From a virus, in the IMG/VR virus record IMGVR_UViG_3300050821_018050, positions 1-64,000 of that record: a DNA stretch of 64,000 bases; one strand, written 5' to 3'. Shown one piece after another: positions 4,034-46,834 of this stretch. The notes beneath the pieces were generated by a model that was given only the letters and a program-made list of their open reading frames with translations, was not told the origin of the DNA and did no database searches. Both the position numbers and the translations under genes were made by a program. How positions within the stretch are numbered: the first letter of the stretch is position 1; every line of letters starts with the position of its first letter.

Positions 4034-6124
4034 ATGTCTGAAAAAAGAAAATCGTCTCCTACAAAATCCACGGAAAGATCGATATATACGATCAATCCTG
4101 ATGGGACAGATTTGCAAAAATCTGATTCAGAGCTATTATTGCAAACGGCTAATGATAAAGCAAAAACTGAAGGCGGTTATCTTGAAAGCATCCTTAAGTC
4201 ATTAAAAGATTCTCAGGATGCCCAACGGATTGCCTTTGAAGTTGATCCATATTTAGTTCAAGGTGCGGGATCAATGGGTGGTGGATTTGGGTCGGCTTAC
4301 ATTCAAAAAACAAAACTTACCCCTGATTGGGTTATCAAAGCTTTAACAGGTCCGGGTGGAGACGAATTATTAAATCAAATTTTACAGGCTAGATCAAACG
4401 TAATTGCTTCTTTTGGTCGCCCTAAGTCAGATCGTTTTTCTGTTGGATTTGAATTCATTCCAATTAATAAATCTAATGAATTTGAAAAAGATGCCAAACA
4501 GGCTTCAGCGGTTAAAGATTTAATCGAAAAAGCTAAAGAAGTAATGTGGAATTGTGGGCATCCTGGACTTGAAGAAGACCAAGCCACTAATTTGTCTCAA
4601 TTCTTCAAAATGATCGTCCGAGATGGCTTGCGTTTTGGGCGATGCGCTATTGAAATGATCTATGCTCGCGACCCTCTTGCAAAAGGTGGTGAGAAACTTC
4701 ACTCATTTCGTCCAGTAGATTCAGGCACTATTTATCGCATTAAGCCGCGTGCAGAAACTGAACAAAGTGTTCGTACTGCTGCAATTAAACTTTTAGAAGA
4801 ACTTAAGAATGAAAAAATTGATGCCTCTAAATATGAAAAAGATGAATACAAGTGGCTTCAAGTTATTGAAAATAAGCCAACACAAGCTTTTACTGATAAA
4901 GAATTAGTTGTATATAATTTTTATCCAGTTACCAACGTAGAATATAGTGGATACCCTCTTACTCCAATTGATCAAGCGATTAGCGCGATCATGACTCACA
5001 TCAATATTACCCTTCATAATAAGTTATATTTTCAAAATGGCCGTGCTACAAAGGGTATCTTGGTATTCAATTCAGATAATATGGATGAGACATCTGCACA
5101 AAAGATCCGTCTCCAATTTAATCAAACTATCAATGGCGTAGCCAATTCACATCGCTTGCCTGTGTTCGTTGTTGGCGAGGATGAAAAAGTATCTTGGCAA
5201 TCGATCGATGCTAGTGGCCGCGATATGGAATTCCAATATCTCATGGATATGAATTCACGCATCATCATGGGCGCATTCCAAATGTCGCCAGATGAATTGC
5301 CAGGCTATAATCATCTTTCTCGTGGATCAAATACCCAAGCTCTTTCCGAATCAAATAATGAATATAAAATGACTGCGGCCAGAGATACTGGATTACGTCC
5401 GCTTATCTATGATATTCAGGATTTGATCAATAGTCATATTTTTCCTAAATTTTTCGGCGATTTATCGGAAACCCATCAATTAATTTTATCCGGCTTAGAT
5501 AAAGACGATCCAGAAAAAGAATCTACAAGATTGCAACAAGACATGGCTGTACACATGACGTACAACGATGTGCTTAAAAAGGTAGAGAAAGATCCTTTAC
5601 CAACGGAACTGGGCGGTGATTTCCCATTAAACCCACAATATCAACAAGTGGTTGAAAAATATTTAACCGTTGGTGAAATTATGGAAAACTTTTTTGGTAA
5701 AAAAGGTGCGGCGGTGGATCCGCGCCACCAATGGTATGCTAACCCAATGTGGATGCAACAACAACAAATGCTAGTTCAGCAAGCTCAAATTGCTATGCAA
5801 AATCAAATGATGGCACAACAAATGGTTCAGCAAGCTCAATCTGGTGGACAGCCACAGCCAGGAGAAGAAGGCGGAGACCCATCACAAAGCGGAGGAGATC
5901 AAGGTCCTCCAGGCGAAACTCCTGCACAAAAAAATGAACGCTTAAATTGGTTAAATATTCAAGTGTTAAACAAATCTATTAAAGATAATCACACTAATAT
6001 TACACGAATGATTTTAGCACGCCATGAAGACGTTAGTAAAAAACAGATTGATGCTTTTGAAAAAGAATCTAAAAAATCTGTTGATCGTATTGTTGCACAT
6101 TTACCCAAAAAAAAGAAAAAGTAG
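4034..6124 (+). CDS. Portal protein
   Basis: 696 aa; portal-like motifs (FRPVDSGTI, GYPLTPI, YFQNGRATKGIL, DMEFQ, AFQMSPDELP, GLRPL); position after terL; Q-rich C-terminus. Confidence 0.88.
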   Translation: MSEKRKSSPTKSTERSIYTINPDGTDLQKSDSELLLQTANDKAKTEGGYLESILKSLKDSQDAQRIAFEVDPYLVQGAGSMGGGFGSAYIQKTKLTPDWVIKALTGPGGDELLNQILQARSNVIASFGRPKSDRFSVGFEFIPINKSNEFEKDAKQASAVKDLIEKAKEVMWNCGHPGLEEDQATNLSQFFKMIVRDGLRFGRCAIEMIYARDPLAKGGEKLHSFRPVDSGTIYRIKPRAETEQSVRTAAIKLLEELKNEKIDASKYEKDEYKWLQVIENKPTQAFTDKELVVYNFYPVTNVEYSGYPLTPIDQAISAIMTHINITLHNKLYFQNGRATKGILVFNSDNMDETSAQKIRLQFNQTINGVANSHRLPVFVVGEDEKVSWQSIDASGRDMEFQYLMDMNSRIIMGAFQMSPDELPGYNHLSRGSNTQALSESNNEYKMTAARDTGLRPLIYDIQDLINSHIFPKFFGDLSETHQLILSGLDKDDPEKESTRLQQDMAVHMTYNDVLKKVEKDPLPTELGGDFPLNPQYQQVVEKYLTVGEIMENFFGKKGAAVDPRHQWYANPMWMQQQQMLVQQAQIAMQNQMMAQQMVQQAQSGGQPQPGEEGGDPSQSGGDQGPPGETPAQKNERLNWLNIQVLNKSIKDNHTNITRMILARHEDVSKKQIDAFEKESKKSVDRIVAHLPKKKKK

Positions 6125-6130
6125 GTTAGT

Positions 6131-7000
6131 ATGAGACTAACTTCAGATCAAGAATCAGTCATTGAATCGGTTCTCAATAATCTGTTTGAAACTATTAAGG
6201 CAAAATATTTAGGTCAGTGGTATAAAGGGCCTAAGATTTTTTTTTCTACCGCCAGAGAAGCCAATCCAATGAATACCGTTGGTGGTATTTTTGAATATAC
6301 GTTGAGGTCAATTCACCCTAATCCATCGGTTGATTATGATATGATTCAAAAATTAGCCAACACCTCTGGAAATTATATCGAAGCCGAAAAGAAACGGGCT
6401 CTTGATAGAATACACGAAAATATTGGTAAAGCTAAAGATGGCGATGATTTTAAGAAGATCGTTGAAGATTCATTAGAGCCGTCAAATAATTACATGAATA
6501 TGCTCATGACGACGGAAGTACGTAACGCACAATCCAGAGCGGAAGTTAGTGGTATTCAGCAAATTGGCGCTGCTCTTGGGATGAATGACCCTACTATCGT
6601 GAAATTAGGCGTAGTTGATCCAAAGTTGTGCCCGGCTTGCCGGAAACTATGGCATACTGAGGAAGATATTCGTGTTCCGAGAGCGTATAAGTTATCAGAA
6701 TTATCCGATGGATATAACACGGACATGAAAAACCCATTGCCCACAACGCTCTCAACACATCCACATTGTCGTCACACCATGAGTATAATTCCTTTGGGTT
6801 ATGGTTACGTTGGAGGCTCATTTCAATTTATTTCTCCTACTTACAATCTTTTGGATGACCAAAGAGGCCTCGGTAAATCAGAATTAATTTTTTCTTTAGA
6901 CCGTTCTTCAATAACGCAAAATACCGAACTCTTCCTATTCGCTTATGAAGACGATCCTTGCGATCAACATGCGCATATTGAATTTTTCGAGCCAAAGTAG
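6131..7000 (+). CDS. MuF/SPP1 gp7-like minor head protein
   Basis: TTEV...A, CPAC and HPHCRH Cys/His motifs; immediately after portal. Confidence 0.75.
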   Translation: MRLTSDQESVIESVLNNLFETIKAKYLGQWYKGPKIFFSTAREANPMNTVGGIFEYTLRSIHPNPSVDYDMIQKLANTSGNYIEAEKKRALDRIHENIGKAKDGDDFKKIVEDSLEPSNNYMNMLMTTEVRNAQSRAEVSGIQQIGAALGMNDPTIVKLGVVDPKLCPACRKLWHTEEDIRVPRAYKLSELSDGYNTDMKNPLPTTLSTHPHCRHTMSIIPLGYGYVGGSFQFISPTYNLLDDQRGLGKSELIFSLDRSSITQNTELFLFAYEDDPCDQHAHIEFFEPK

Positions 7001-7241: not shown

Positions 7242-7742
7242 ATGAAGTCTTACGGTGTAATATATAAAATCACTAATAAAATCAATGGGAAGGCATATGT
7301 TGGACAGACGGTTCAATCATTAAGTGTCCGCTGGTCTAAACATAAATCCAGCCACACTCATTGCAGAATACTTAAAAAAGCAATGGACAAGTATGGTATC
7401 GATAATTTTACCATAGAGTCGATTGTATCAGCTTTTAATGCCGAAGGTTTACACGAACTAGAAGTTCAAATGATAAAAGAGTTTAATACCGTTACTCCCA
7501 ACGGTTATAATATGAATACCGGCAGCGATTGTTCGATAAGTTCCCCAGAAGCAAAGGCAAATAAATCTGCAGCACTTAAGAAAAAATATTCCGATCCGGC
7601 ACATGCAAAAAAAATGCAAATCATTTTCCAGAATCCTGAACGCAAGCGTAAAATTGGCGAAGCCGCACAAGCACGATGGAATGACCCTAATTATAAAGCA
7701 AAGATGATTGAAAAGCGTCGAGCGAAGGTGGGTACGTGTTAA
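7242..7742 (+). CDS. GIY-YIG homing endonuclease
   Basis: GVIYKITNKINGKAYVGQT, RW..H, E..I, PNGYN, NUMOD-like basic C-terminus. Confidence 0.9.
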   Translation: MKSYGVIYKITNKINGKAYVGQTVQSLSVRWSKHKSSHTHCRILKKAMDKYGIDNFTIESIVSAFNAEGLHELEVQMIKEFNTVTPNGYNMNTGSDCSISSPEAKANKSAALKKKYSDPAHAKKMQIIFQNPERKRKIGEAAQARWNDPNYKAKMIEKRRAKVGTC

Positions 7743-9334
7743 TTTACGGTATTGGCGCAACACAGGCGATCGATAGCAGCGGCGAAATTCTTTCAGTAGA
7801 AGGATGCGACATTTCAGATGTTGCGGCTGGAAAAGCGTTTTTTAATTGGGAGCACTCAAACGATGGAGCAGATACAATCGTAGGAGCCGTAACCTACGCT
7901 AAGAAAATCTATTCATTGGCAGAATGCGAAAATGATAAACAAAAAGAATGCTGGGAAGCCTGCCTCTTACCCATGGTTTATATCGAAGGGCGACTTTTTG
8001 ATAAAGAGGGTCATGTAGGAGCTATTTGTTTGGCCGCTATGTTTAGATCATTTGCTGCTCGCGGCGAAAAGATTCAGATAGGTACTTCTATTGAAGGCGC
8101 TACTATGCAGCGCGGTCAGGGGCCAGAGCATAATATTTTAATGCGCACTCTAGCTCGTAGGTGGGCGATCACTTTAAGACCATGCAATAAACAATGCATG
8201 CTTTATTTAGATAAAGATGAATATCCAGACGTTCTAAAATCAGAAACTTTTAATTTCATGGATATCGCTCCTCAAGATGTACCAGCACATGGTTTCATTA
8301 ATATTGAAGATCCTATCGCAGATATCTACAATACAATCGCTGAATTAAATAAAACTCTTGATGCAGGGGGCGGTGCAACCTGCGCTCCTTCACAATTAGT
8401 TGGCGGCGCTGCGCTTGGTGTAGAAAATCTTGTTGGTAGTACAAAAGATCGTATTAAGAATGCATATAAAAAATGGGACCGCAAAAAAAGTTTAAAGGCT
8501 CACATGAAAGCCGAACTCCCAGATGTTGCTGAAAAATACATAGAACATTTTGATGATATTGCTAATGAATTACAAATAAAAAAATCTGAAGGTTTGATTA
8601 GAATTGAATCAGATAAGCAGGGCAATGATGGAGCTACCGCATCTCAAAAGGCTTTACTAAATGGAACTTCTGTTTCTGCTAATGGAAGTCCCAGCAGAAT
8701 CGCTACAAATGATAATGGTCAAGTATTAGATATTTATTCATCATCTATTACGCCAACAGGCGGCGAAACAGCTAAAAATGCGGCTTCTTATTATGCAGCA
8801 GCTGATGATGTATTTGGTCTTGGCGATCATGTTACTCCTACGGCCTTTTTCCTCCATCAAACTTTCCCTATGGATGGAGCACCGTTACATTATGCTGTAG
8901 CTCAGCCAGAAGGTCAATCGGCACTTATTGGCAAAACATTCGAAGATTCTTTTGGCAAGAATAAAGAACTGTACCAAAAAATTGGCCTTATGGATGCAAT
9001 ACTTGGCCATGGTCATAGAATATGTGGTAATATACTGTTGAATAAAGGTAAACCTATTTTGATGGATAATCATCACGCTTTCGAATATAATCAACCTTCA
9101 GGCATGCACCAAAAACTCCACGGCGGAGATATCATGGGTGAAGATACAAGAAATTGGCTGATGTCGATTGATCCAAAAAAACTTGCGGGGACACTAGCGA
9201 GTAGTAAAATTGGATTAGATCGGGTTAAAAAAGCCATAACTGCTTTAAAAATCGCGCAGGCTCATAATCATCATCCGATTGACAAAATAGTAGAAAAAAT
9301 CTATCATATAGAAATGGATCCTGTACAGCAATGA
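7736..9334 (+). CDS. Prohead protease fused to a C-terminal kinase-like domain
   Basis: DSSGE, NWEH (His40), GTSIEG (Ser118), AIT.RPCN motifs of HK97/U35-like head proteases; C-terminal LMDAILG..HR..GNILL...LMDN resembles the PI3/4-kinase/HipA fold. Confidence 0.8.
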   Translation: MLIYGIGATQAIDSSGEILSVEGCDISDVAAGKAFFNWEHSNDGADTIVGAVTYAKKIYSLAECENDKQKECWEACLLPMVYIEGRLFDKEGHVGAICLAAMFRSFAARGEKIQIGTSIEGATMQRGQGPEHNILMRTLARRWAITLRPCNKQCMLYLDKDEYPDVLKSETFNFMDIAPQDVPAHGFINIEDPIADIYNTIAELNKTLDAGGGATCAPSQLVGGAALGVENLVGSTKDRIKNAYKKWDRKKSLKAHMKAELPDVAEKYIEHFDDIANELQIKKSEGLIRIESDKQGNDGATASQKALLNGTSVSANGSPSRIATNDNGQVLDIYSSSITPTGGETAKNAASYYAAADDVFGLGDHVTPTAFFLHQTFPMDGAPLHYAVAQPEGQSALIGKTFEDSFGKNKELYQKIGLMDAILGHGHRICGNILLNKGKPILMDNHHAFEYNQPSGMHQKLHGGDIMGEDTRNWLMSIDPKKLAGTLASSKIGLDRVKKAITALKIAQAHNHHPIDKIVEKIYHIEMDPVQQ

Positions 9335-9951
9335 AAGTTTATCGAATTGTATCGAAACATTCTGAAATACCTTTAGCGGAAATTCGTGCTGACGATCATG
9401 GTAGTATTGAATGGACCGTAGATAATACTAACGGAAAATTACCATCAGAAGCGGGAGATAATCTTGCGTCTATTTCTAAATATGTTGAAGCAAATAAACA
9501 TATGGATTTCGCAGAAGATGATAAATCCGCCGCTCAACTTTTAAGATATGTACTTGAAAATGGCGATGTAGCAGAAGTTACGACAGATGGTGCATCTTGC
9601 GTTTTAAATGGAAAGATTTTATCTCAAGAAGAAAAAGCTGCCTTTTTTGATGCTATTACCCAAGGAACAATCAAAGTAGCTCGCAAAGCTGATGTAATGC
9701 GCCCAATTCCTGTCCCAGCAACAAAACCGCTAGAATACAAACCGGTGGAAACCCCTAAATTAAATCCATCCCTATTGGCTGCTTATCGTCAAGAAATTGA
9801 ATCAGCATATGAAGCTACCCAAAATGATGCATTGTTAGGCAAATCGGAATTAGATCCTACTCAATTTGATGTACCATCAGATGATGTACCGTTTGCACAA
9901 AGAATGATCCAAGTTTTAGCAAAGGAAGCTCGTAAAAATGCCAGACGCTAA
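9331..9951 (+). CDS. Hypothetical head-operon protein
   Basis: 206 aa, coupled to the protease gene; contains LLGKSE. Confidence 0.7.
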   Translation: MKVYRIVSKHSEIPLAEIRADDHGSIEWTVDNTNGKLPSEAGDNLASISKYVEANKHMDFAEDDKSAAQLLRYVLENGDVAEVTTDGASCVLNGKILSQEEKAAFFDAITQGTIKVARKADVMRPIPVPATKPLEYKPVETPKLNPSLLAAYRQEIESAYEATQNDALLGKSELDPTQFDVPSDDVPFAQRMIQVLAKEARKNARR

Positions 9952-17779: not shown

Positions 17780-18634
17780 ATGAAATTCTCAGACCAAGAA
17801 ATCGACGCATTGTTAGCCTCTGTTGAGGATGCAATGGCTCAAGCTGATAAGCTTGCAAAGTCTATGCCAGGAGCACACCCACAAGTCGCGCCTGCAAAAC
17901 CTATGATGGCTCCTAAGCCAGTTATGGGCACTGCAGCGCCAATGGCAGCTCCTATGAAAAAAGAAGGCGAAGATGAGCAAGCCGCTCCTGATGCCGTAGC
18001 TCCCGAAGCTGCTGCACCAGAAGCCGCTCCTGCAGCCCCGGCTCCTGATGCTGCCCCTGATGCACCGCAAGGTGATGATCAGTTGCAAGCAGATGCCCAA
18101 GATCAAGGTGAAATCTCTGATGAAGAGCTTCAACAAATCTATGCATCAATGGATCCAGCAGAGCTTCAACGCCATTGTGCTATTATTCAATCGCTTATGG
18201 GCCAATCTGACGCCGCTCCTGAAGCAGCACCTGCTGCACCAGAAGCTGCCCCAGCTCCAGAAGCTCCAGCCGCATCACCAGATGCTATGAAGGCTGAAGG
18301 TTGTGCAGATGATGAAGAAATGGGTAAATCAGAAGGTTTCAAGAAATTGAAAGCCGAAAATGATGCTCTCAAAAAATCACTCGACAAAGTTGTAGCTGCT
18401 ATGGGGAACGCTTTCAAGCCAACCCGTAAAGCTGTAACCAACATTGAGTACATCAGTAAATCAGAACAAGCTACCGACGACAAGCCGTTAGTAAAATCTG
18501 AAGTGATTGCGCAACTAAACAAAATCACAGCTTCTCCTAGTCTTTCTAAGTCTGAGAGAATCTCAATTAACGATTTCATCCTCACGGGTGGGTCACAAAA
18601 AGAAGTCAAAAATATCCTTAAAGGAGGAAAATAG
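17780..18634 (+). CDS. Capsid scaffolding protein
   Basis: Acidic A/P-rich linkers (PEAAPA repeats) and coiled coil; many xxKSE sites; directly before MCP. Confidence 0.75.
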   Translation: MKFSDQEIDALLASVEDAMAQADKLAKSMPGAHPQVAPAKPMMAPKPVMGTAAPMAAPMKKEGEDEQAAPDAVAPEAAAPEAAPAAPAPDAAPDAPQGDDQLQADAQDQGEISDEELQQIYASMDPAELQRHCAIIQSLMGQSDAAPEAAPAAPEAAPAPEAPAASPDAMKAEGCADDEEMGKSEGFKKLKAENDALKKSLDKVVAAMGNAFKPTRKAVTNIEYISKSEQATDDKPLVKSEVIAQLNKITASPSLSKSERISINDFILTGGSQKEVKNILKGGK

Positions 18635-18636
18635 TA

Positions 18637-20025
18637 ATGGACTTGATTAAGCAATTAGAATCGCTGGTTAAGACCTTAGAAGCGGGAAATTATAATTCCG
18701 CTCCGGGTACACTGGTACAAGGGTCTGCTTTGCAGTCAGAAGATCTTTCTTCTGTAATGCATAACGTGACCTTCACTCAAGAAGAGATTAAGCTTCAAAA
18801 GCTTTTCGGCAAAAAGAAAGCAAAATCTCTTACAATCCAATTCAATCGCCAACTGTCTTATGGACGTTTCGGCGGATCAGCACAACGCGAAGGCGCTGTG
18901 GGTGATGTTGACGTAGGTGACTACGTTCGTGCTACGGTCCCTATGTGCTTTTATAGCCATGTGCGCCGTGTCACGGAAGCTGCAAATCTCGTAGAAGCAT
19001 TCGACGGTATCAAAGCCGAAGATCGCGAAGCGGAAAACGCAGCAATCAAATTAGCTGCTGATATCGAGTTTGATCTTTTTAAAGGTAAAGCTGATTTCTC
19101 AAATGCAGGTGTATTTGATGGTCATCCGAACGCTATGCCAGAGCTTCCAAATATGCTCGGCTTAGATGCTCAAATCCGTCAGTCTGATATGCTCGTTACA
19201 ACCCAAGACTTGATGTTTGCTGCTTATGGTAGCAATCAATCAGTTGTTCTGGCTCAAAACGCTGCATTAGACCAAATCGTTATCGAAGATGCACGTTTAC
19301 GCGCTCGCTTGAATTTCTCTCAAGCTAAAAATCTTTATATCGATCCATCTGTTCTCTCTAGCTACAATAAAAAAGTAGCTTTAGGAACTGGTGCAAACAG
19401 CCTACAACGCATTGTTCTCGCAGGTGGCCCACAAACGGCTTCTGGTGCGGAACTTCGCGAACAATGGACCAATCACGGTAACGTGAAACTCGAAGAATCA
19501 GATTTCCTTCGTGGTAAAACTGGCCCATTGCGTCCAAACATTGGATCATCTGCTGCTCCAGCAATTACTACCCAACCGGCTGCTTCTGGTTCAGGTTCAC
19601 TTCTCGCTGCAGGCGCTTACATTTATACTGTAACCGCTTCTAACGAACGCGGTGAATCACCAGCTACGGCTTGTGCTTCAGTAACTGTAACTGCAGGTCA
19701 AATCGTTACCTTGACGATCACTGCTCAATCAGGCATCAAGTACTATAGCGTATATCGCGGAACGACTGCAAAAAATGCAGCATTCATCGGTAACGTTGCA
19801 GCAACTGGCGGACCAGTAGTATTTACTGACCTTGGCAATAAAGCGCCAGGTTTCGTAACTGGCTACTTGATCGACGAAAAAACCTGGGAAATGCATGACT
19901 TAGCTCCTTACAGCCGTAAAAAGCTCGCTCAAGCTGACCTTTCTACTCCAGAAGCGCATTACGCGTTTACCACGGTAGCTGGATACCAACCTCGTAAAAA
20001 TGTCATCGTTGACAACTTATTTTAA
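18637..20025 (+). CDS. Major capsid protein (Herelleviridae-like)
   Basis: LVK|TLEAG..APGTLVQGSALQSEDL N-terminus, IEF.LF.G.AD, Ig-like insertion YTVTASNERGES...YSVYR, terminal NV. Confidence 0.88.
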   Translation: MDLIKQLESLVKTLEAGNYNSAPGTLVQGSALQSEDLSSVMHNVTFTQEEIKLQKLFGKKKAKSLTIQFNRQLSYGRFGGSAQREGAVGDVDVGDYVRATVPMCFYSHVRRVTEAANLVEAFDGIKAEDREAENAAIKLAADIEFDLFKGKADFSNAGVFDGHPNAMPELPNMLGLDAQIRQSDMLVTTQDLMFAAYGSNQSVVLAQNAALDQIVIEDARLRARLNFSQAKNLYIDPSVLSSYNKKVALGTGANSLQRIVLAGGPQTASGAELREQWTNHGNVKLEESDFLRGKTGPLRPNIGSSAAPAITTQPAASGSGSLLAAGAYIYTVTASNERGESPATACASVTVTAGQIVTLTITAQSGIKYYSVYRGTTAKNAAFIGNVAATGGPVVFTDLGNKAPGFVTGYLIDEKTWEMHDLAPYSRKKLAQADLSTPEAHYAFTTVAGYQPRKNVIVDNLF

Positions 20026-21744: not shown

Positions 21745-21923
21745 TGGATATTCTATTTGTAATACTTATTTGTGCTGGCGCGGCCATTCTAATGAATATT
21801 AAAGAGGCTCGCGAAAATAAAAAAGTAGATAGCAAAATTATTAAATGTGATCTTCATAAATGGGATACGAATGCAGTAGGAATGCTGGCATGTAACAATT
21901 GTGGAAAGATAGCGGGAACTTAG
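21744..21923 (+). CDS. Small membrane-anchored Zn-finger-like protein, 59 aa (not in track)
   Basis: N-terminal hydrophobic helix ILFVILICAGAAILM; C-terminal CxxH...CxxC. Confidence 0.6.
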   Translation: MDILFVILICAGAAILMNIKEARENKKVDSKIIKCDLHKWDTNAVGMLACNNCGKIAGT

Positions 21924-22634: not shown

Positions 22635-22640
22635 TGTTAT

Positions 22641-27139: not shown

Positions 27140-27154
27140 ACTGTAGAGGGTATT

Positions 27155-30700: not shown

Positions 30701-31209
30701 AAATAACAGATGATCAAATCGCAGAAAGAAAACTTGCAGGCGTCTCAGCTACCGGGCCGGTCGTATATGTTCTTACTCGCGGCGGTCTTCATTCAATGTT
30801 TAGCAAAAACCAAAATGGTGATATAGTGTCACTTTCGGCTGCTCCCCACAGAGGTATTGCTACGTTTTTCGCCGAACAGAAAGACCCTACGATTAAATGG
30901 CGCGATGAATTTATTGCAAAAAGTGAAAACGATATAACAGATCTTAATAAAAATGAAAATGATAATTACGAAAAATATCGCAGCATGATCTGGTCTCAGG
31001 AACAAAATTTAATTAAAACAGAAGCTTCCGATATTTATTTCGTTTATAATACGCAAACTAATGATATATGGGTATCGGATAAAAATGAACTTAAGTCGGA
31101 GATGAAAGAGTCGCAAGATGTATCTTATTGGGTAGTAAGGCCAATAGACATGACCGCTCCAGCTCGTATGGCAAATCTTTGTGAGGAGCTTCAAAATGGC
31201 GAGGCCTAA
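30697..31209 (+). CDS. Hypothetical head-associated protein
   Basis: 170 aa with IAKSE, LNKNE, LIKTE motifs. Confidence 0.65.
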   Translation: MKITDDQIAERKLAGVSATGPVVYVLTRGGLHSMFSKNQNGDIVSLSAAPHRGIATFFAEQKDPTIKWRDEFIAKSENDITDLNKNENDNYEKYRSMIWSQEQNLIKTEASDIYFVYNTQTNDIWVSDKNELKSEMKESQDVSYWVVRPIDMTAPARMANLCEELQNGEA

Positions 31210-32510: not shown

Positions 32511-33056
32511 TTGAAACCCAAAAATAAATCAGAATTACTAATGCAACTTAAGTCAAAGTTGACCAAAGCTAAAATGGCTGAAGGCCCATCTGGAGCTGCG
32601 ATGCCAAAAGCTCCAGCCCCGCCACAAGTGCCTAAACCCCCAGTAGCTCCCGGTAATAGCCCAGCAGCGCAGCAAGCCAAACAAGGACAAACTGCGGCTG
32701 TAAAGATGGCTTCCGCTCCTCCTAAAGCACCCCAAGCTCCTAAACCTCCACAAATGGGTAAATCAGAAACTTACTTTTCGCATAAACGCAAAGAACTTAC
32801 TATTTCTGAATCACAACTTTTTACAGAATGCGAACATTGCGGAGTGCCTCAATTCACAAAAACTGAACAAGGGCCATCTTATAAACCCTGTGCTTGTTTT
32901 ATGGTTACTAAGAATGAACAATTTGTAACATTGAAAAAGAATGAAACAGGTTATGCATTAGATTTCAATCCTAAAGCAGATGCTGATTCGGTTAAAGCCT
33001 TTTTGCTAGCACTTAAGGCAAGATTACTGGTGACAAAGAAGTTCGGAGACGATTAA
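32511..33056 (+). CDS. Pro/Ala-rich protein with C-terminal CxxC...CxC domain
   Basis: Low-complexity N-half ending QMGKSE, then CEHC...CAC. Confidence 0.65.
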   Translation: MKPKNKSELLMQLKSKLTKAKMAEGPSGAAMPKAPAPPQVPKPPVAPGNSPAAQQAKQGQTAAVKMASAPPKAPQAPKPPQMGKSETYFSHKRKELTISESQLFTECEHCGVPQFTKTEQGPSYKPCACFMVTKNEQFVTLKKNETGYALDFNPKADADSVKAFLLALKARLLVTKKFGDD

Positions 33057-33057: not shown

Positions 33058-34218
33058 ATGGAGCAAAAGCTCTGGGTCGTCATGTTTTCAACCCAAATTG
33101 CTGACCAGATTCGTAAATTATTGGAATCGGGCAAATTTACTGAAGCTACTACGACAAACGACTTACTAAAAGCATTTCAAGAAAAGATCTCATCAGAAGT
33201 TCAAAAATCTGGTGGGCATTTGCACGTTTTTTTACCAGAATGGATGGTAATACAAATCACCCCATCCTTAGCTGAGCAAATTCCAGAATTAGTTAAATCT
33301 TTTAATGATCAAGTCGGATACAGTTTAGCAACCGGAATCGGCCTAAATTTTGGAGAAGCTGTTAAAGCCGCTAAGATTTCTGAAGAAACTGGTGACATTC
33401 AATTATTTGAAGAAGATATGAGCAAATCCCTAGAACTTCCTCCTAATCTATTCGATTATGGTGATCAATCTATCGCAAATAATGATGAGAATACTGATGC
33501 TCAGGAACAAACTTATACAAAAGGGCCAGATTATAAAGCTTCTTTACAGTTAGCAGCCGAACAGCTTCAGGCGATTATACAACAATTGGGTGGCCAAGCT
33601 CAGCAAGATGCGGCTCAGCAAGTACAGCAAATTCAGCAACAACAGGCTGCACAACAACAGCAACAAGCGCAGGCTCAGCCACGAGATTTAGTGGATGCAT
33701 TGCATGGTGAACAAGTCGGCGACCGTAATCCTTACAGAGCCAAATCTGACGACAAAGATTCTGACAAAAAATCATCTGATAAGTCAGATGACGACAGCGA
33801 TACTGAAAAAGATGAAGAACCTACCGATGATTCTGACGGCGACGAAGTGCAACAAAAACTAGGCGGTGCTTTGCTTCACATAAAAGAGCAAATCCCTCAA
33901 TTAATGGATTTAGCAGAAAAAAATCCTGATGCTTTTAAACAGTCAATGACTTTGATCCAAAAACTTCTTTCTCTTACTAAGCAAACAAAATCTGGCGTTG
34001 AAAAAAGTGAATCGCAAGAACTAACCGGGTCTCTCAATAAAAGAATGTTACTTCCAGTAGGTTCAACTAAAAATCGTAAGAAAAAAGTTTTGGTTAATGG
34101 CAAGCAGGTTTGGAGATCCATGATTAGCGGCCAAGTACAAGACTTGAGTGGTCAAGCTATTTCTGGTAAATCTAGTAATGCGAATGCCGAAAAGGGTGCT
34201 CAGCCCAAGGAAGAATAA
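33058..34218 (+). CDS. Protein with degenerate mCpol-like N-terminal domain and Q-rich/acidic linkers
   Basis: SGG.LHV...LATGIG.NFGEA.KA...S..TG pattern of the minimal CRISPR polymerase domain without catalytic Asp; MSKSL, VEKSE. Confidence 0.55.
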   Translation: MEQKLWVVMFSTQIADQIRKLLESGKFTEATTTNDLLKAFQEKISSEVQKSGGHLHVFLPEWMVIQITPSLAEQIPELVKSFNDQVGYSLATGIGLNFGEAVKAAKISEETGDIQLFEEDMSKSLELPPNLFDYGDQSIANNDENTDAQEQTYTKGPDYKASLQLAAEQLQAIIQQLGGQAQQDAAQQVQQIQQQQAAQQQQQAQAQPRDLVDALHGEQVGDRNPYRAKSDDKDSDKKSSDKSDDDSDTEKDEEPTDDSDGDEVQQKLGGALLHIKEQIPQLMDLAEKNPDAFKQSMTLIQKLLSLTKQTKSGVEKSESQELTGSLNKRMLLPVGSTKNRKKKVLVNGKQVWRSMISGQVQDLSGQAISGKSSNANAEKGAQPKEE

Positions 34219-36246: not shown

Positions 36247-38784
36247 ATGAGACCTCCTATGCGCGAAGGCGATACAGAAACTATGAATAATGGCGAAACA
36301 TATGCTGCCATAAATCATCCTGATCTCGGCTTAGTTTGGGATTTACATCCACAGCATCATGAAGAGAAAAAACAAAAGTTTTTGGTTCAAGCTAAACAAT
36401 GGCTTCAACACCAACCGCCAGAACATCATGAAGTGATCCGATCATTTGTAAATAAGATTTTAAAAGATCCCAACAAGCATTTACGCGTAGGCCAAGATAC
36501 TCGAACTGGCCCAACGGTACCTCGTTTCCGTCACATTAATCAAATGGTAAATGATCATCCTGACACAAAACTGACAGTACATTCACCAAATTCATTGACA
36601 TTGCAGGTTAAGCGTCATAGCCATGATACAAATAATGAAGGTTTATCCAATTTTCACTATGATATGACGAATGATGTTGTAAAATCAGAAGATTTATGGT
36701 ATAATGGAGTATATGGACTCTATAAAGACGAATTCGGGAATAACTATCGAGTCTCTCATGAAGCTGGGGCCTGCTCTATCTTCAGACGAAAGAGTGGCGA
36801 TTTGGGAAAAAGCGAATTTGGGTATGATCAGCTCGATGAACCAAGTACTAAACTTATCCTTGGAAGAATTCAGCCTCTTCTTAAATCTTTACGATACGGG
36901 AGCCATTCTGGAATTTCTGACCCCATCTCAGATGAAAGCGATAATGATCCATTTCAAGGTGACGGGTCATCGATACTAGAAAAAGGTGAAAAAGTGCATT
37001 CTGGAATTATGGTCGCAATACCAATTCCTACTGATATTGGCGAAAAGATTGCCGTTAAGAACGGCGAATCGCCAGATAAAATGCATGCAACGCTTCTATA
37101 TGTTCCTAAAGTTGGAGACAATGAAGAAGTATTTTATAAGATTGTTGCTATAGTGTCGGAAGCAGCCAAGACTTTTGCGCCATTGAAATCAAAAATTGCT
37201 GGGATCGGTCGTTTTAGTGCTAGTAAGTCAAGCGACGGCAAAGATGTCTTTTATGCTGGCTATGATGCCCCTGCATTACCCGAATTACGTCAATATATTT
37301 TTGATAAAGTAAAAGAATCTGGAATTGATTGGGAAAGTAAATTCGGATTCACTCCCCATATAACTTTAAAATATATTGGTACTGAAGACGAACTTCCACA
37401 AAATCGTCTTGAAGGCGAGGAATTCATTTGTGACAAAATCATCATCAAGTCTCAAAGCTTCAAAGAAGAAGAAACATTTACGGGAGATCGAGTTGCAAAA
37501 TCGGATCAACTGTCAGCTCATTTTAGTTCCCTTCTTAAATCTGGTGATGGTGGGGGTAAATTTATTCGAAGATTGCCCGATCAGCATAGCAATAGATTTG
37601 GGTCCGAGTGGTACAAAAAATCTAAAAAAGATAAACGATTAGAAATTCAAAAACCTGATCCGCATGATAAGATACCCTTAAAAACTTCCATTGCCGATGC
37701 CGTTGCTTCGGTTCTTGGCCCAAAAATTAAAAAAGAAGAGCTTGATAAGGGGGCGGCACAACGTCTTTTTCCCGTAGAATCCCCTAAACCGCTACCCACT
37801 TCTTCTAAATATAATTTAAAGGTTCCAGGAAGAGAAAAAGAAGAACAATGGCAATCTGGCATGAATGGTAGAGATTTGCTTCCTGTGCAGTCTAACAATG
37901 AAAGAGCAAGAGGTTTATTAAAATTAACTGGTCAAACTAATCATAGAAAAAATTCTAAAACCGGCGAAAATGAATTTTTATTGCATCGCGCTCACCATCC
38001 ATCTGAAGTTTTTGGTGAATCCCATAAAAGTAGATCTTCATCTTGGACACCACGTAAATGGGTAGCAGAAGAAGAAGCTAAAGTTCATCAAAAAGAACAT
38101 CCCTCTAAAATAACATCGGCATGGTTTCCAGAATCTGATATAAAACATTATACTTTTCAGACTCCAGGCGCATTTCAATCCGAAGATGGTAAACCATACC
38201 CAGAATTTGGATTTGAAAAAGAAGTGGTTATTAAGCCAGGACACAAAGGCATTATACACAGTCAAAATGATATTGTTAAAAAATCAGAATATTTAAGTAA
38301 AGCTGACGACTGGAAATCAAGTTACGAACAGCATTTATCGCAGCCCAACAAATTAATCCATTATTCTAAAAAGGCGGGATTAACATCTTTGGATCCAACT
38401 TTCCAAGGAACCGGCGCGCCGTCTGAAGAATACAAGCACGGATTACCTTCAATCCCCCGTACATATTTTTATCAACATGGCACCGAACCAGAAGATATTG
38501 TGAAACAAGGTGCAGTTGCAAAATATACGGCTACTTTAAAACCGGAACATAAAATTTATGACTTGGCCCACGATAAGGACAATATTCACCATAAATTAAA
38601 AGTAGCTTCTATGGGTAAACAAGTTAACCCAGGAGTAGTAAGTTCAGATGATTATTTGCATGCTATTAAAGCCGCAGGTTACCACGGCTTCAAAAATTCG
38701 GCGTCGACCCAGCTTCCTAATGTTATAGCACTTTTTCACGCCCATCCGATAGATTACGAGGAGACTGTCCATGAAAAAACGTAA
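36247..38784 (+). CDS. Multidomain polyprotein: unknown His-rich domain, 2H phosphoesterase, R-S-E ART-like domain, H-Y ART-like domain
   Basis: HATL/HITL (aa 280/371); LHR...SSW...EKE (aa 581/598/657-659); IHYS...LDP...YFY...AAGYHGF; domains bounded by xxK|SE-type motifs. Confidence 0.75.
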   Translation: MRPPMREGDTETMNNGETYAAINHPDLGLVWDLHPQHHEEKKQKFLVQAKQWLQHQPPEHHEVIRSFVNKILKDPNKHLRVGQDTRTGPTVPRFRHINQMVNDHPDTKLTVHSPNSLTLQVKRHSHDTNNEGLSNFHYDMTNDVVKSEDLWYNGVYGLYKDEFGNNYRVSHEAGACSIFRRKSGDLGKSEFGYDQLDEPSTKLILGRIQPLLKSLRYGSHSGISDPISDESDNDPFQGDGSSILEKGEKVHSGIMVAIPIPTDIGEKIAVKNGESPDKMHATLLYVPKVGDNEEVFYKIVAIVSEAAKTFAPLKSKIAGIGRFSASKSSDGKDVFYAGYDAPALPELRQYIFDKVKESGIDWESKFGFTPHITLKYIGTEDELPQNRLEGEEFICDKIIIKSQSFKEEETFTGDRVAKSDQLSAHFSSLLKSGDGGGKFIRRLPDQHSNRFGSEWYKKSKKDKRLEIQKPDPHDKIPLKTSIADAVASVLGPKIKKEELDKGAAQRLFPVESPKPLPTSSKYNLKVPGREKEEQWQSGMNGRDLLPVQSNNERARGLLKLTGQTNHRKNSKTGENEFLLHRAHHPSEVFGESHKSRSSSWTPRKWVAEEEAKVHQKEHPSKITSAWFPESDIKHYTFQTPGAFQSEDGKPYPEFGFEKEVVIKPGHKGIIHSQNDIVKKSEYLSKADDWKSSYEQHLSQPNKLIHYSKKAGLTSLDPTFQGTGAPSEEYKHGLPSIPRTYFYQHGTEPEDIVKQGAVAKYTATLKPEHKIYDLAHDKDNIHHKLKVASMGKQVNPGVVSSDDYLHAIKAAGYHGFKNSASTQLPNVIALFHAHPIDYEETVHEKT
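36677..36705 (+). promoter_or_regulatory. Intragenic sigma70-type promoter
   Basis: TTGTAA-N17 (ending TGG)-TATAAT; ATG at 36713. Confidence 0.7.
36713..36979 (+). CDS. Nested +1-frame gene, 88 aa, inside the polyprotein linker
   Basis: MDSIKTNSGITIESLMKLGPALSSDERVAIWEKANLG...; own promoter; helical amphipathic composition. Confidence 0.6.
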   Translation: MDSIKTNSGITIESLMKLGPALSSDERVAIWEKANLGMISSMNQVLNLSLEEFSLFLNLYDTGAILEFLTPSQMKAIMIHFKVTGHRY

Positions 38785-39589
38785 CATGGATTGGAAATTG
38801 GATCAATGCAAATTTGCAGCAGTTCAATATAAATCAAAAATTGAGTGGAAAATGAAAGATCATAAATCTTACGAAGCAGCGCGTAAAAATAAATGGATAA
38901 AAGAATGTTCTGAACACATGGTAAGACCTCAAGTGCATAATAAAAAATGGGATTTCGAATCCTGTAAAATAGAATCTTTAAAACACAAGACTAGGGGTAA
39001 ATGGCAAGCACATCACGCTTCTTCTTATCAGATCGCACAAAGGAACGGATGGCTAGAAGAATGCTGTTCGCATATGTCTAACGCAAGAAATCTCAACAAC
39101 ACTTGGACGTTGGATAGATGTAAGTTAGAGGCATTAAAATACACAACTAGATCCGAATGGTGGAGAACAGATGGGAAATCATATGACGCTGCCAGAAGTA
39201 AAAATTTTTTAGAGGATTGCTGCGCTCATATGCCAAAGCGTAGTCATTCTTCTATGCAAGAAAATATAATTTTATCTATAGTAAAAAATAAATTTCCACT
39301 CGCGTGCTCTCGTAAATTCGGTAAAAATAAAAAATTTCAATCCGGGAATAGATTCGAGCTTGATATTTATATTCCAGAATTGAATAAGGGTATTGAATTC
39401 AATGGAGAATATTGGCACAGAGAAGGGTTGTTGCGTAAAGGTAAAGACCCCGCAAAATACCATAGTTTGAAGCGAGATTTTTTTAAGAAACTATCCATAG
39501 ATTATATAGAAATTTGGGAAAATGAATGGGCAAAAAATAAAGATTTATGCCTCTTAAAAATTAATGATTTTTTAGGAGTTAGCTTATGA
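38771..39589 (+). CDS. Free-standing homing endonuclease (repeat DNA-binding modules plus PD-(D/E)xK/Vsr-like domain)
   Basis: Three W...C..E..K...R.EW....SY..A....W...C..HM repeats; ELDIYIPELNKGIEFNGEYWH. Confidence 0.85.
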   Translation: MKKRNMDWKLDQCKFAAVQYKSKIEWKMKDHKSYEAARKNKWIKECSEHMVRPQVHNKKWDFESCKIESLKHKTRGKWQAHHASSYQIAQRNGWLEECCSHMSNARNLNNTWTLDRCKLEALKYTTRSEWWRTDGKSYDAARSKNFLEDCCAHMPKRSHSSMQENIILSIVKNKFPLACSRKFGKNKKFQSGNRFELDIYIPELNKGIEFNGEYWHREGLLRKGKDPAKYHSLKRDFFKKLSIDYIEIWENEWAKNKDLCLLKINDFLGVSL

Positions 39590-41292
39590 AAAATCCATTT
39601 GATGACCATCACATTATTTTTAGTGCCGAAGGTGCTATGCATCCGACAAAACATCAAGTTGTTCCTTCTCATGAGGAAGTTTTAGATTATCTAAGATCGC
39701 AGGGAGAAAATGCTGTTGGGGTTCAAGGTCATTATGGCTCTCCAGAAAGATCCATTCTAGTTAATTCCCCTAAAAATCCAAAAGGCCTTCATCAGCTTGC
39801 TACCGATCTAGGTCAAGATTCTATTCTTGAATCCAAAAATGGTCAACATGCATTAACTTACTTAAACGGTGCCCAAAAAGGAAAAGTAATCACTGGAGAA
39901 GGAACTACATTCCATCCATTGAAGCCGGAAGACCTTTATACGACTATTAAAACCCCTAAAGGTGATGTGCATTTTAGTCATAATTTAAATTTTAGTCAAT
40001 CTGCAGTAAATAAATCAGAATCTGGAATGGGTGATCTATCTACTGACGAAGATACGAATGATTTGATGAATCGAGAAGAAAATAAATATTTCGTCAGTAG
40101 GGATCAATTGGATCTTCTTACCCAAACGGCCAAAGAAAATCTTAAAGAGGGTGATATTGATACGGAAAGTCGCTATAATACCAATAGAACTTTTTACATG
40201 GATAATAAAGATTTAGACTCCATGAAAGATGGATTAGATGGCATTAAGCCACGACTAAAAATCAGAGTAAGACAATATGCTCCGAATCATAAAGATTGGG
40301 AAAATATTGCTTATGTCGAAATCAAGGCAAAGAAGAAAGACGGGATGACGAATAAATGTCGCGTGCGTATTTATGCTGACGACATCGAACCTTTCCTCGA
40401 AGGAAAGCCTTTAGAAAATAGCAAAGATTTAATTAATCTTAATAAAGATATAACAAAAAAACTTTTGGATAAAAGAATTTTAGCGGTAAACAATATTGTT
40501 TCCACGTATGGATTTAAAAAACAAATTGAAGTTAGATATGAACGCAGAGCTTATACTGGCAAAAAAGTCAGGATTACTATTGACGATAATTTGAAATATT
40601 TGGATGCCACAGAAATTTCTCCAGAAAATAAAGAAGCTATTAAAAATACAGATGGCTGGAAGCGTATGGACAAGCATACAGATAAACTTCGCCGTAAAGA
40701 CTATTTAATAGTAGAAGTCAAACATCAAGGTGATGCGCCAAGATGGGTAAAAGATCTTTTGGATAAAACTGATGCAAAGGAAGTAAAATTTTCCAAATAT
40801 TGCGCCGCCGTAGCCTCGTATATTAAATCTGGCAAAAAAGAAAATAATATTAGTAGACTTAGTTTCGACTTTTCTGATAATCTGGATAAGACAGAAAGTT
40901 TAACTAAGATGCCAAAAGTTTTTACCGGAACACCAAAAAAGCCACATACTACTGTATATCGCATGCAAGATAAACATGGAGAAGGTCCGTATATGGCCGG
41001 AATTCCAGCCCTAGACAATCATGGTTCCTCTTCCTCGGCGCGAGGACTATCTACTCCTGATCCAAAATATGATCAAGGATTCAATGCCACTGATTTAAAA
41101 GTATTACACGATTCTCCTGCTGTTAAATTTGGGTTTGAAAAACCTGAACATGCGCATGAATGGTTTAGTCCAGATGAAATTGAAGAATTGGGGAATCACG
41201 GGTTTACACTTCAGCCCGTTAAAGCTGCGCACGTCTGGTCATCAGGTAAACAGGCATTTTATAAGAAGTATGTAAAGCCTAAAAAGCCTTAA
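39586..41292 (+). CDS. Multidomain polyprotein: DUF3293-like domain, VTC domain, small C-terminal phage domain
   Basis: SAE...G.YG.PE.S.LV...LGQDSIL; REENKY, YMDN, KIRVRQY, VEIK, YERRAY, VRITID, VEVK, FSKYC; separated by VNK|SE and LDK|TE.LTK|M. Confidence 0.8.
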   Translation: MKNPFDDHHIIFSAEGAMHPTKHQVVPSHEEVLDYLRSQGENAVGVQGHYGSPERSILVNSPKNPKGLHQLATDLGQDSILESKNGQHALTYLNGAQKGKVITGEGTTFHPLKPEDLYTTIKTPKGDVHFSHNLNFSQSAVNKSESGMGDLSTDEDTNDLMNREENKYFVSRDQLDLLTQTAKENLKEGDIDTESRYNTNRTFYMDNKDLDSMKDGLDGIKPRLKIRVRQYAPNHKDWENIAYVEIKAKKKDGMTNKCRVRIYADDIEPFLEGKPLENSKDLINLNKDITKKLLDKRILAVNNIVSTYGFKKQIEVRYERRAYTGKKVRITIDDNLKYLDATEISPENKEAIKNTDGWKRMDKHTDKLRRKDYLIVEVKHQGDAPRWVKDLLDKTDAKEVKFSKYCAAVASYIKSGKKENNISRLSFDFSDNLDKTESLTKMPKVFTGTPKKPHTTVYRMQDKHGEGPYMAGIPALDNHGSSSSARGLSTPDPKYDQGFNATDLKVLHDSPAVKFGFEKPEHAHEWFSPDEIEELGNHGFTLQPVKAAHVWSSGKQAFYKKYVKPKKP

Positions 41293-41813: not shown

Positions 41814-41850
41814 TATATAAATAATAGCATATTTGTCGGGATTTGTCAAT

Positions 41851-41860
41851 CCTAATATTT
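41851..41860 (+). promoter_or_regulatory. Putative late promoter element CCTAATATTT
   Basis: Back-to-back with a divergent sigma70 promoter; implies GTG 41866 start. Confidence 0.75.
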
Positions 41861-41865
41861 TCATT

Positions 41866-43389
41866 GTGAAGCGTGATTATTTTAGACAATTACAGAAATC
41901 TAGCGGTTGGTCTGGGAGACAAAAATCTACTCCTCAAGCCGCCGATTCTATACATTTTTCACATCCAGAGCACGGCACTGTATCTATCATAAAAGACAAC
42001 AACCAATATCATGTTAAACACAATGGAGCCTTGGCTGGTATTCGCGGACAAAAAGGTGTATTTGATCATCCTAAATCTGCAGTAGAGCACGCAAAGGCCT
42101 ACATCGGTCATCTCAACGCTGGTCAGCCCGGCAAAACTATTTTTAATACTCCTTCGGCCCCGCATTTAGGTAAGGCCGATCCTTCGCCATCTCCAAGCCC
42201 TAATTGGGACGTTAATAAACAAGCTGCACAAAAATTTCAAGATGGATTTAATCAAGGCCCCGATATCAGCGGGGCTTGGAACAGCATTAAATCTGGCTTA
42301 GGCTTGGGGAAATCTTTCGGTACTACTGAAAAGATGCACCCTACCGGTAAAAATACTGAGATGGGTCAAATTGCTAGAAAGCAATCTTTACAAAAACTAA
42401 GAGCATTAAAAAAGCCAAATCTAGGGAAATCAGAGAATATTATGTCAAAATCAGCAATCGAACAAGCCAAAGACCTTATCAAAGCATTGAAAGAAAATCC
42501 ATCTGGATTAGAAGAACTTTCCAAAGCTGCAGTTCAACACATTAAAGGTGTGCATATGCCAATCGGCGCGGGCGCTCCTGGTATGTCTGAAATGGGAAAA
42601 ATCAATTCTCTTAAAACTGGTGGAAAAGAATTCGCGAATTCTGCTGCCAAGCATCAAGTAAAGCAAATTTCTCAGGCAGCTAAGACTCTTCCGAAGCCTA
42701 AGTTGGGTAAAGAAGAAATTAAAGAAATACCGCAAGAAGATAAAAAAGGCGACCAACCCTCTGGAACAGTTGGCGTAGAAAATCCTAAAAATGTTGATCC
42801 TTTAATGGATAAAACTGGCGCAAATCCAGATTATAAAGCACCGAGTGAAAAAGAATGCAAAGAAATGGTGAATAAAGCTTCTATGTCTGAAAAGGGTGTT
42901 CATAAGCCAGCATTTATGCATTCCAAGAAAAGCGGAACATCTGATGTTGGCGCTCGTATGGCACCGGGCGGAGCCAGTAAAGAGACCAATGCATATGCCA
43001 AAGAAGAACATAAAAAAGTACTAGCTGAATCTAAGGCTATGCCAAAACCTAATCTTGGTAAAGAAGAAATGGGCAAGTCAGCTTTCAAAACCCTTCAGCA
43101 TAAGATTGAACGCAAAGAAGGTTATTCGCCTGATCGTGCTGCAGCAATTACTGCTTCCATCGGTCGTAAAGAGCTTGGCCAAGCTGAAATGACTCGCCGC
43201 TCCAAAGCCGGTATGCATAAAAAAGCAGAAGGCAACCCAGATATGAAACAGGATGCTCAGCTTGGAGAACAAGTCGAACATGCTGTTGAAAGCCATATGA
43301 TGGCTAATGCCGGAGCTGAAGCCAAAGAAGGACATCCAATGGCTAAGGCCTATTTCAGGAATAAATTGGCTAAATGCGGAGTTAGATAA
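41866..43389 (+). CDS. Basic low-complexity polyprotein with repeated modules and many xxK|S/A sites; probable internal head protein
   Basis: LQKSS, LGKAD, LGKSF, LGKSE, MSKSA, LSKAA, LGKEE, VNKAS, MGKSA; three KP.LGK-terminated repeats. Confidence 0.7.
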   Translation: MKRDYFRQLQKSSGWSGRQKSTPQAADSIHFSHPEHGTVSIIKDNNQYHVKHNGALAGIRGQKGVFDHPKSAVEHAKAYIGHLNAGQPGKTIFNTPSAPHLGKADPSPSPSPNWDVNKQAAQKFQDGFNQGPDISGAWNSIKSGLGLGKSFGTTEKMHPTGKNTEMGQIARKQSLQKLRALKKPNLGKSENIMSKSAIEQAKDLIKALKENPSGLEELSKAAVQHIKGVHMPIGAGAPGMSEMGKINSLKTGGKEFANSAAKHQVKQISQAAKTLPKPKLGKEEIKEIPQEDKKGDQPSGTVGVENPKNVDPLMDKTGANPDYKAPSEKECKEMVNKASMSEKGVHKPAFMHSKKSGTSDVGARMAPGGASKETNAYAKEEHKKVLAESKAMPKPNLGKEEMGKSAFKTLQHKIERKEGYSPDRAAAITASIGRKELGQAEMTRRSKAGMHKKAEGNPDMKQDAQLGEQVEHAVESHMMANAGAEAKEGHPMAKAYFRNKLAKCGVR

Positions 43390-46437: not shown

Positions 46438-46447
46438 GGTATAGACA

Positions 46448-46834
46448 ATGGAAAAGCTTTCTAAAACTTCTTTACCCCCTAAGATTAAGTATCGTATCCG
46501 TAAATGGATCGAAACCATGAGACATGCAAAACCAAATATGTCTAATAAAGATCTTGCAGGTAATATTGTGAAGAAATTTGAAGAAGCGTTGGCCATTAAA
46601 GAACTTAAAAAGAATCAGGTGATGGCTTCCATGTACAAATCAGGTGGAATGCGCTTAGATTTTGGAATGAATGTCTCAGAAAAAGCTAAAAAAGCAGCTT
46701 TGGAATGGGCTAAGAAAAAAGGTTTACAGATTGAAACCAGTGAATTGGCTAAATCAGTAGCAAAGTCAAATAAGCTTGAATTCGGCGATTGCCGGACAGA
46801 TGAATGCATCAAACGCGTTATCTGGGAATGTTAA
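46448..46834 (+). CDS. Hypothetical protein between sheath and tube
   Basis: 128 aa, basic; LSKTS, MYKSG, LAKSV motifs. Confidence 0.65.
   Translation: MEKLSKTSLPPKIKYRIRKWIETMRHAKPNMSNKDLAGNIVKKFEEALAIKELKKNQVMASMYKSGGMRLDFGMNVSEKAKKAALEWAKKKGLQIETSELAKSVAKSNKLEFGDCRTDECIKRVIWEC

Follow-up and report, generated by a model that had tools for sequence, protein, structure and literature searches.

Only for T4 and a few jumbo phages is it understood how injected proteins are selected, loaded, and activated. T4 (gp21, acting on IPI-III and Alt), phiKZ (gp175), and SPN3US (gp245) each have a prohead protease that recognizes a motif of three residues and cuts a large number of head proteins. T4 gp21 processes the core proteins gp22, gp67, and gp68 as well as the internal proteins, of which Alt is ejected (PMC9026906); Alt, an ADP-ribosyltransferase (ART), is taken into the head, processed, and ejected (PMC9026906, PMC10052503). 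In each of these systems Glu precedes the cut (L/I-x-E, A-x-E), and what is taken off is a terminal propeptide of a single protein. The present analysis concerns bases 1-64000 (the window) of a 159,805-bp, single-contig myophage genome (IMG/VR virus record IMGVR_UViG_3300050821_018050), which hold the late region, and a short motif centered on Lys that recurs there in head proteins and in multidomain late proteins. Here, unlike in the T4, phiKZ, and SPN3US systems, Lys occupies P1, and a single chain has its sites placed between several enzyme domains. Sequence comparison strongly supports the prediction that one Lys-specific prohead-protease signal marks the capsid protein, the scaffold, and the protease of this phage and also divides unrelated enzyme modules from each other.

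A second point of comparison is provided by the polyvalent proteins of phages and conjugative elements. In the available portions of two accounts (Iyer et al. 2017, PMC5512222; 2022, PMC9503650), these are described as late proteins that combine several domains (ART, 2H, Nudix, GNAT, kinase, and lysozyme-like) and are predicted to be packaged and injected, with fusions to head proteins and to a capsid-processing peptidase noted; for their processing, either internal zincin peptidases acting autoproteolytically or a fused assemblin domain in some generic role is proposed. Those portions contain no head-protease linker code acting in trans, no latent signal helix, and no capsid-arm mimic. Two open reading frames (ORFs) of the window, 36247 and 39586, each encode at least two unrelated conflict domains in one polypeptide, lie among virion genes, and vary in architecture between relatives, as polyvalent proteins do. 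The ingredients are known already; the linker code would offer polyvalent proteins a concrete release mechanism. Literature searches, whose coverage was incomplete, returned no paper joining prohead protease and polyprotein for this motif.

The late cluster runs from terminase (854) through portal (4034), a MuF-like protein, protease (7736), and scaffold (17780) to the major capsid protein (MCP; 18637), after which come neck genes, a block of variable genes, and then sheath (43666) and tube. Almost all of the MCP homologues (at least 1373) belong to uncultured phages. The nearest cultured phage is Myxococcus phage Mx1 (OR576727), with 52% identity in the MCP and 34% in the protease domain. Its late genes stand in the same order, and its 1239-residue protease and a 1479-residue “NUDIX hydrolase” are both punctuated by the same Lys motif, whereas its cargo modules differ in content and order. 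The GC content of Mx1 is 56% against 39% in the phage studied here, so the host probably differs. For Mx1, the literature search gave no description of the motif and no virion proteome or other virion study. Herelleviridae and the Bacteroides DAC phages are next nearest (~25%).

In its refined form the motif reads [L>M,I,V,F]-x-K|[S>A>T,G,N]-E, within a wider profile of (E/P)-(E/D)-[L>M,I,V,F]-x-K-[S>A>T]-E in which G and N take the P1' position in particular modules; a position weight matrix derived by expectation maximization was diffuse and was not used. The strict form [LMIV]xK[STAG]E was counted against an expectation from 30-residue local shuffles, which gave 8 observed versus 0.8 expected in the head genes of the window and 13 versus 1.4 in the cargo genes named by an earlier sequence-only reading of this DNA, compared with 1 versus 1.0 in neck and tail genes and 2 versus 5.2 in the remainder. 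As that cargo set had been picked by eye, the enrichment was repeated out of sample in nine metagenomic relatives and Mx1 (GC 33-56%), with the original motif kept fixed and the gene sets defined by position. Core head genes again stood out (68 versus 8.0 expected, 8.5-fold), as did the non-neck genes lying from neck1 to sheath (103 versus 19.1, 5.4-fold), against 2 versus 3.2 (0.6-fold) in neck genes and 94 versus 101 (0.9-fold) in the rest. Control motifs in the out-of-sample genomes stayed at 0.65-1.35 times expectation with Arg, Glu, or false spacing and at 0.9-1.5 with Gln. Glu specificity of the T4 capsid-targeting sequence (CTS)/gp21 type was not seen, the HxES control standing at 0.9-fold while the Lys motif was enriched. 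Within the window, head and cargo proteins carry the motif ~10 times as often as expected, while all other proteins stay at background; the feature is real and family-wide.

All motif instances listed by the sequence-only reading are present in the ORFs it named, and the enrichment that it expected is borne out. Its impression that sites are scarce in tail and early proteins is not, as the loose four-letter motif occurs there at chance level; for this reason lone loose matches mean little. Gly, which it had admitted at P1', shows no overall enrichment, yet is fixed before one ART module. LAASE, which looks like a variant of the linker, was counted 7 times in 50 thousand residues of cargo genes and once in 406 thousand residues elsewhere. 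In relatives it is found in late polyproteins (P0123, P0124, P0132, P0147, P0211, and the late regions of G001-G006), often where a Lys site is expected, and variants with Arg at P1 occur too. Such variants possibly represent a second or relaxed specificity.

The link to head maturation is provided by the structural genes, which, like all head and cargo genes described below, lie on the plus strand. The MCP (18637..20025) is of the SPO1 gp6.1/phi812 type (profile matches to 9VEL, E 3e-29, and 5LII, E 3e-19) and has its probable maturation site, LVK|T, at K12 (nt 18670). Neither L10 nor K12 varies among 38 aligned sequences (K12 in 30/30 in the conservation count), and the first 30 residues of 120/120 homologues contain a motif match. 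The site aligns with VVK|S of the phi812-type capsid protein, for which PDB entries 9ROW, 9ROX, and 9ROZ hold a chain of 439 residues that equals 5LII minus exactly its first 24 residues and starts right after VVK. On our own reading of these entries, the 439-residue chain is the mature form, and the alignment makes it very probable that the MCP is trimmed at a Leu-x-Lys|Ser-type signal. Cps of Listeria phage A511 is reportedly cut at a Lys-Ser bond, and the phi812-type chains serve here as the corresponding evidence. The scaffold (17780..18634) has six conserved sites (K27, K183, K199, K227, K239, K257), each kept by 20-28 of 29-30 homologues. Such a pattern would be expected if the scaffold is diced, which is how gp21 treats gp22, gp67, and gp68 in T4.

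Conservation of the sites named by the sequence-only reading is uneven elsewhere in the head genes. In the portal (4034..6124; Pfam Phage_portal, E 6e-14), the N-terminal K55 is exact in 10/27 homologues and has a site nearby in 18/27, and the C-terminal K647 is kept in 7/15; K29, kept in 2/27, is not conserved. The sole strict site of the MuF-like head protein (K249; 6131..7000, assigned from its sequence and its Cys/His motifs, with no Pfam or PHROG match) recurs in 4/30 homologues and K171 of ORF 9331 in 0/8; both are probably chance or lineage-specific. The putative prohead serine protease domain, in contrast to these, is followed by well kept sites. It occupies residues 1-165 of ORF 7736-9334 (7736..8230), with K168 just past the domain in 23/30 homologues and K206 in 28/30. 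No Pfam or PHROG model matched the domain, which shows weak matches to prohead serine proteases of Twortvirinae and 34% identity to the putative prohead protease of Mx1. Its S118 (nt 8087), already proposed as catalytic, and H40 (nt 7853) are invariant in 65 aligned proteases, including those of Herelleviridae (Twortvirinae) and DAC19.

Another structural feature of the protease, absent from the sequence-only reading, is mimicry of the capsid. Directly after K206 stands a copy of the N-terminal arm (N-arm) of the mature MCP, followed by a short helical domain and site K283 (8351..8584). A hidden Markov model of the MCP N-arm matches ~40 proteases of the family, and the prohead protease of Mammaliicoccus phage PMS2 (Twortvirinae; L194:4908-5717) has a copy of its own MCP N-arm after INK|A, so that the mimic appears to be old in this head lineage. 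No paper describing an N-arm copy in a prohead protease was found. The copy is a candidate docking piece that could hold the protease or its cargo to the shell. In a large subclade (many loci: L013, L015-L077), the protease gene has the opposite orientation to those of scaffold and MCP, and there it still carries both motif and N-arm copy. The gene varies from 300 to 1437 residues in relatives, with other cargo; in the window, the protease is followed by a kinase-like module of the PI3/4-kinase/HipA type (8585..9334; weak Pfam match), which has a homologue above the Pfam cutoff in relative G026 and is also found in other polyproteins.

The Herelleviridae (SPO1 gp6.1, phi812/K MCP) share with this phage a homologous MCP with the site at the same place, and a homologous protease with the same His/Ser pair and the same N-arm copy. 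MCP identity to them is only 24-26%, against 52% to Mx1, and the Herelleviridae protease compared has 269 residues and no cargo, with no multi-enzyme chains in the 10-kb stretch examined. On sequence, the head module is of the SPO1/phi812 type; the phage is not filed under Herelleviridae.

Outside the head genes, the position of the sites relative to folded domains is informative. For 11 modules with pooled homologues, the strict motif is enriched 6.3-fold in the 45 residues upstream and 4.9-fold downstream and falls to 0.50-fold inside cores, while Arg and Glu controls stay at 0.8-1.35. Avoidance inside cores is predicted by a cut site and not by a mere binding tag. A generic all-versus-all boundary test gave only a modest signal (0.27 versus 0.18), the module-anchored test being the cleaner one. 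Across 11 genomes, identical modules appear in varying orders and genes, including fusions to the protease, with sites between them; the polyproteins of relatives add Nudix and GNAT domains. The sequence-only reading had placed the sites of enzyme-bearing ORFs at domain boundaries, and the flank and core ratios agree with this, with the exception of two loose matches, VTC K394 and 2H K401, that lie inside Pfam domains. Two proteins in which the same 2H module is joined to a different-looking protease are enriched for L-x-E|S/A instead (9 versus 2.0 and 9 versus 2.9 expected). These fusions serve as a small natural control, and they support a linker code coupled to protease type.

The largest of the enzyme polyproteins (36247..38784) has four modules: an unassigned one (residues 1-146), a 2H phosphoesterase (247-418; Pfam LigT, E 4e-8, with a weak Acb1 match), a putative R-S-E ART fold (502-679), and a second ART/RES-like module (686-845), with sites at K146, K188, K213, K246, K418, K431, K501, K679, and K685 between them. 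A subthreshold Tox-MPTase4 match overlapping the 2H domain is the sole hint of a zincin MPTase/LPD hub. An independent search of 1.8 billion proteins returned matches to residues 245-420, 491-681, and 695-841, the edges of which bracket K246/K418, K501/K679, and K685. As a whole-protein alignment collapsed, the modules were folded singly; the third and fourth gave pLDDT values of 83 and 92, and their top structural matches were almost all ART or RES proteins (best Z 4.9 and 6.9). In the third, an R is invariant and motifs with S-x-W and E are conserved. Neither of these two modules had a significant match in Foldseek or in profile searches of PDB and Pfam, and the models point with modest confidence to ADP-ribosyltransferase folds in both. 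The ART/RES-like module (38302-38781) has at least 86 relatives in polyproteins among the top 150 matches and no Pfam model; among its structural matches, a pre-ejectosome chain of cyanophage A4 (9K3A, Z 6.0) ranks second.

A second enzyme polyprotein (39586..41292) consists of three modules separated by K143 and K435: a SAM-lyase-like module (1-143), with a homologue above the Pfam cutoff, a VTC/CYTH domain (162-411; E 2e-35), and a T4 Y00F-like module (436-568). Whereas T4 cargo carries a capsid-targeting propeptide, the N termini of 36247 and 39586 open directly with a module.

A third cargo gene (29531..30700) encodes a leader, site K119, a hydrophobic helix, an SLT-type transglycosylase, and site K321, an arrangement that the sequence-only reading had not pointed out. 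K119 is present in 15/15 homologues. Past it come a basic residue, an uncharged Ala/Gly/Leu helix (29888-29950), a polar spacer, and the transglycosylase, and the order of site, helix, and SLT domain holds in 27/27 homologues, both where the module begins close to residue 10 and where it begins past residue 1000; Mx1 has the same arrangement. In late proteins, a site lies no more than 16 residues upstream of 10/15 internal uncharged hydrophobic segments (background 14%; other genes, 20/176 segments), and 9 of those 10 are one SLT module. Cutting at K119 would leave an N-terminal segment resembling a signal peptide or a signal-arrest-release (SAR) sequence, which would suggest export.

The remaining motif-bearing late genes are of a different character. 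A site-dense protein of 518 residues with 11 sites, probably a diced core protein, is encoded at 41833..43389; it combines a shuffled 92-residue module (23-114) with repeated modules, each with a site at its end. Its motifs had been recognized before under a start at 41866, which is an in-frame GTG within the true frame. Probable core proteins also include 32511..33056, with a low-complexity leader, K84, and a conserved Cys-rich C-terminal module, and 33058..34218, a conserved two-module late protein with a Gln/acidic linker and sites K123 and K316. The family-conserved N-terminal module of the latter (33058-33460) looks by eye like a degenerate nucleotide-cyclase palm, and in Mx1 an annotated nucleotide cyclase adjoins the protease gene. 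A small basic late protein (46448..46834) keeps K6 in 6/8 and K102 in 8/8 homologues, and a conserved small late protein (30697..31209) has an N-terminal 72-residue module ending at K75. By analogy, 17780, 41833, 32511, 33058, and 46448 resemble T4 gp22, gp67, and gp68 and would probably be cut up and mostly cleared, while 36247, 39586, 29531, and the C-terminal part of 7736 are predicted enzyme polyproteins that should yield intact domains. The sequence-only reading had proposed that strings of effector domains are packaged as polyproteins and released during maturation; its single Lys signal between enzyme modules is strongly supported, but it had merged enzyme chains with scaffold-like core proteins.

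Together, enrichment, conservation, module-edge position, core depletion, alignment with the phi812-type chain start, shuffling, and folds form the observed basis for a likely mechanism in which the prohead protease trims the capsid, clears core proteins, and frees single enzymes for delivery with the DNA. The phage's own prohead serine protease, of the assemblin/HK97 type (ORF 7736, H40/S118), would recognize the motif and cut after Lys in the context hydrophobic-x-Lys|small residue. Late polyproteins would be coassembled into the core of the prohead, and during maturation the capsid propeptide would be trimmed, scaffold and core proteins diced, and enzyme polyproteins cut at their linkers into single domains of 15-32 kDa (ARTs, 2H phosphoesterase, SAM lyase, VTC, kinase, and transglycosylase). 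These would remain in the head, enter with the DNA, and counter nucleotide-signal, restriction, or NAD-based defenses or take over the host. As each module would bring its own linker, modules could recombine freely between genes. Cleavage at the sites is highly likely from this evidence, packaging of the enzyme polyproteins can be proposed with good confidence, and ejection and function in the host are reasonably probable.

A broader proposal, plausible but tentative enough that it may well prove wrong, is that the head protease of Mx1-like phages acts as a general polyprotein processor, as in RNA viruses, so that one gene gives several injected enzymes and the linker travels with its module as a unit of recombination. 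Cleavage would then also program localization, unmasking a Sec/SAR-like signal that sends the transglycosylase to the envelope after injection and exposing an N-arm mimic that tethers protease cargo to the shell. If true, a signal peptide made by capsid maturation would be a new routing of an injected enzyme. Polyvalent proteins have been predicted since 2017 without a mechanism of domain release, and a readable linker code would supply one. Read with this code, the “hypothetical” proteins of 800-2900 residues in a large, uncultured clade would separate into single domains that are candidate anti-defense enzymes, some of them outside known families, and residue-level predictions follow for the cultured phage Mx1.

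Several points weigh against the release of enzymes by the head protease. The proteases of T4 and SPN3US remove terminal propeptides or destroy scaffolds, and mass spectrometry of SPN3US gave 14 sites, all of which release terminal propeptides, with ~80% of head proteins uncut (PMC10052503). In the literature searched, no example came up of one chain giving several retained enzymes, and no proteomic or biochemical data were found for the Mx1 clade. The motif is degenerate, so that some matches, such as K394 and K401, are chance; the homologue counts are not phylogenetically independent; and the ART assignments depend on fold matches of Z 4.9-6.9 and catalytic motifs. Furthermore, no shared capsid-targeting tag was recognized among the cargo genes, although no formal search for one was made.

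In one alternative, the motif is an uncut docking or targeting helix for the scaffold, the protease, or the inner wall, cargo is ejected whole, and only capsid, scaffold, and terminal propeptides are cut. The mostly uncut head proteins of SPN3US (PMC10052503) fit this view, as does the virion RNA polymerase of phage N4, which is packaged without processing (PMC5512222), and the helical context of the motif (E at -4/-3) and the frequency of tandem sites close to N termini would suit a docking element. Such an element, however, needs neither a site between every pair of modules nor a two-fold depletion in cores, it leaves unexplained a signal-like helix directly after a site deep within chains, and the capsid site of the same sequence matches a processed phi812-type chain, all of which make docking without cleavage improbable.

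Another alternative is cleavage without delivery: the sites might be cut to clear core filler or to activate proteins late in the cytoplasm, for example the transglycosylase for lysis, with no domain injected. Such an outcome would suit 41833, 32511, 33058, and 46448, which are low in complexity and site-dense like T4 gp22, gp67, and gp68, and a signal-like helix on a muralytic enzyme recalls the signal-peptide and SAR endolysins. The enzyme modules, however, are intact, conserved, and of early-acting classes (SAM lyase, 2H with its weak Acb1 match, ARTs), and they also occur as direct fusions to the protease and to MuF-region proteins. Folded domains of 15-32 kDa are also unlikely to exit through prohead pores, and on these grounds cleavage for clearance or lysis alone appears unlikely. 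That the motif is a compositional or repeat artefact of Lys/Ser/Glu-rich linkers, as the 10-14% Lys of cargo proteins and the motif-ending repeats of 41833 might suggest, is hardly credible given the local-shuffle, mis-spaced, Arg, and Glu controls, an enrichment that persists across 33-56% GC, sites conserved to the exact alignment column in scaffold, MCP, and protease, and the presence of just 1 of the 13 strict cargo sites in 41833, and is largely refuted by the out-of-sample enrichment and the flank and core tests.

ORF 9938 (9938-15907; 1989 residues), tried as cargo, shows no motif enrichment despite its location in the head operon. Its N-terminal part is long and helical-repeat-like, its conserved C-terminal domain (about residues 1735-1970) turns up again as a module in other polyproteins, and it received no Pfam or PHROG assignment. 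Three homing-endonuclease-like genes (GIY-YIG- and HNH-like by sequence) sit before the protease (7242-7742), after the MCP (20120-20596), and between the two enzyme polyproteins (38771-39589), with no enrichment of the Lys motif in any. A search for relative loci seeded with ORF 35203 gave no match.

A nonstructural block (21899-28107) separates the MCP from the neck genes and encodes, by sequence assignment, a VWA-type protein paired with an AAA ATPase (22641, 24346), an RNase H-like protein (25698), and a ClpP-like protein (27439). Beyond the window, ~45 kb of the genome (73000-118000) is dense with minus-strand ORFs of 50-100 residues, interleaved with a few long plus-strand genes low in Lys. 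An alternative genetic code was considered for these small ORFs and rejected, as no single stop reassignment opens the region specifically; the many tiny genes that Mx1 has there also disfavor recoding. Within the window, a lone and unusually long tRNA-Ala(TGC) is called on the minus strand at 54760-54854.

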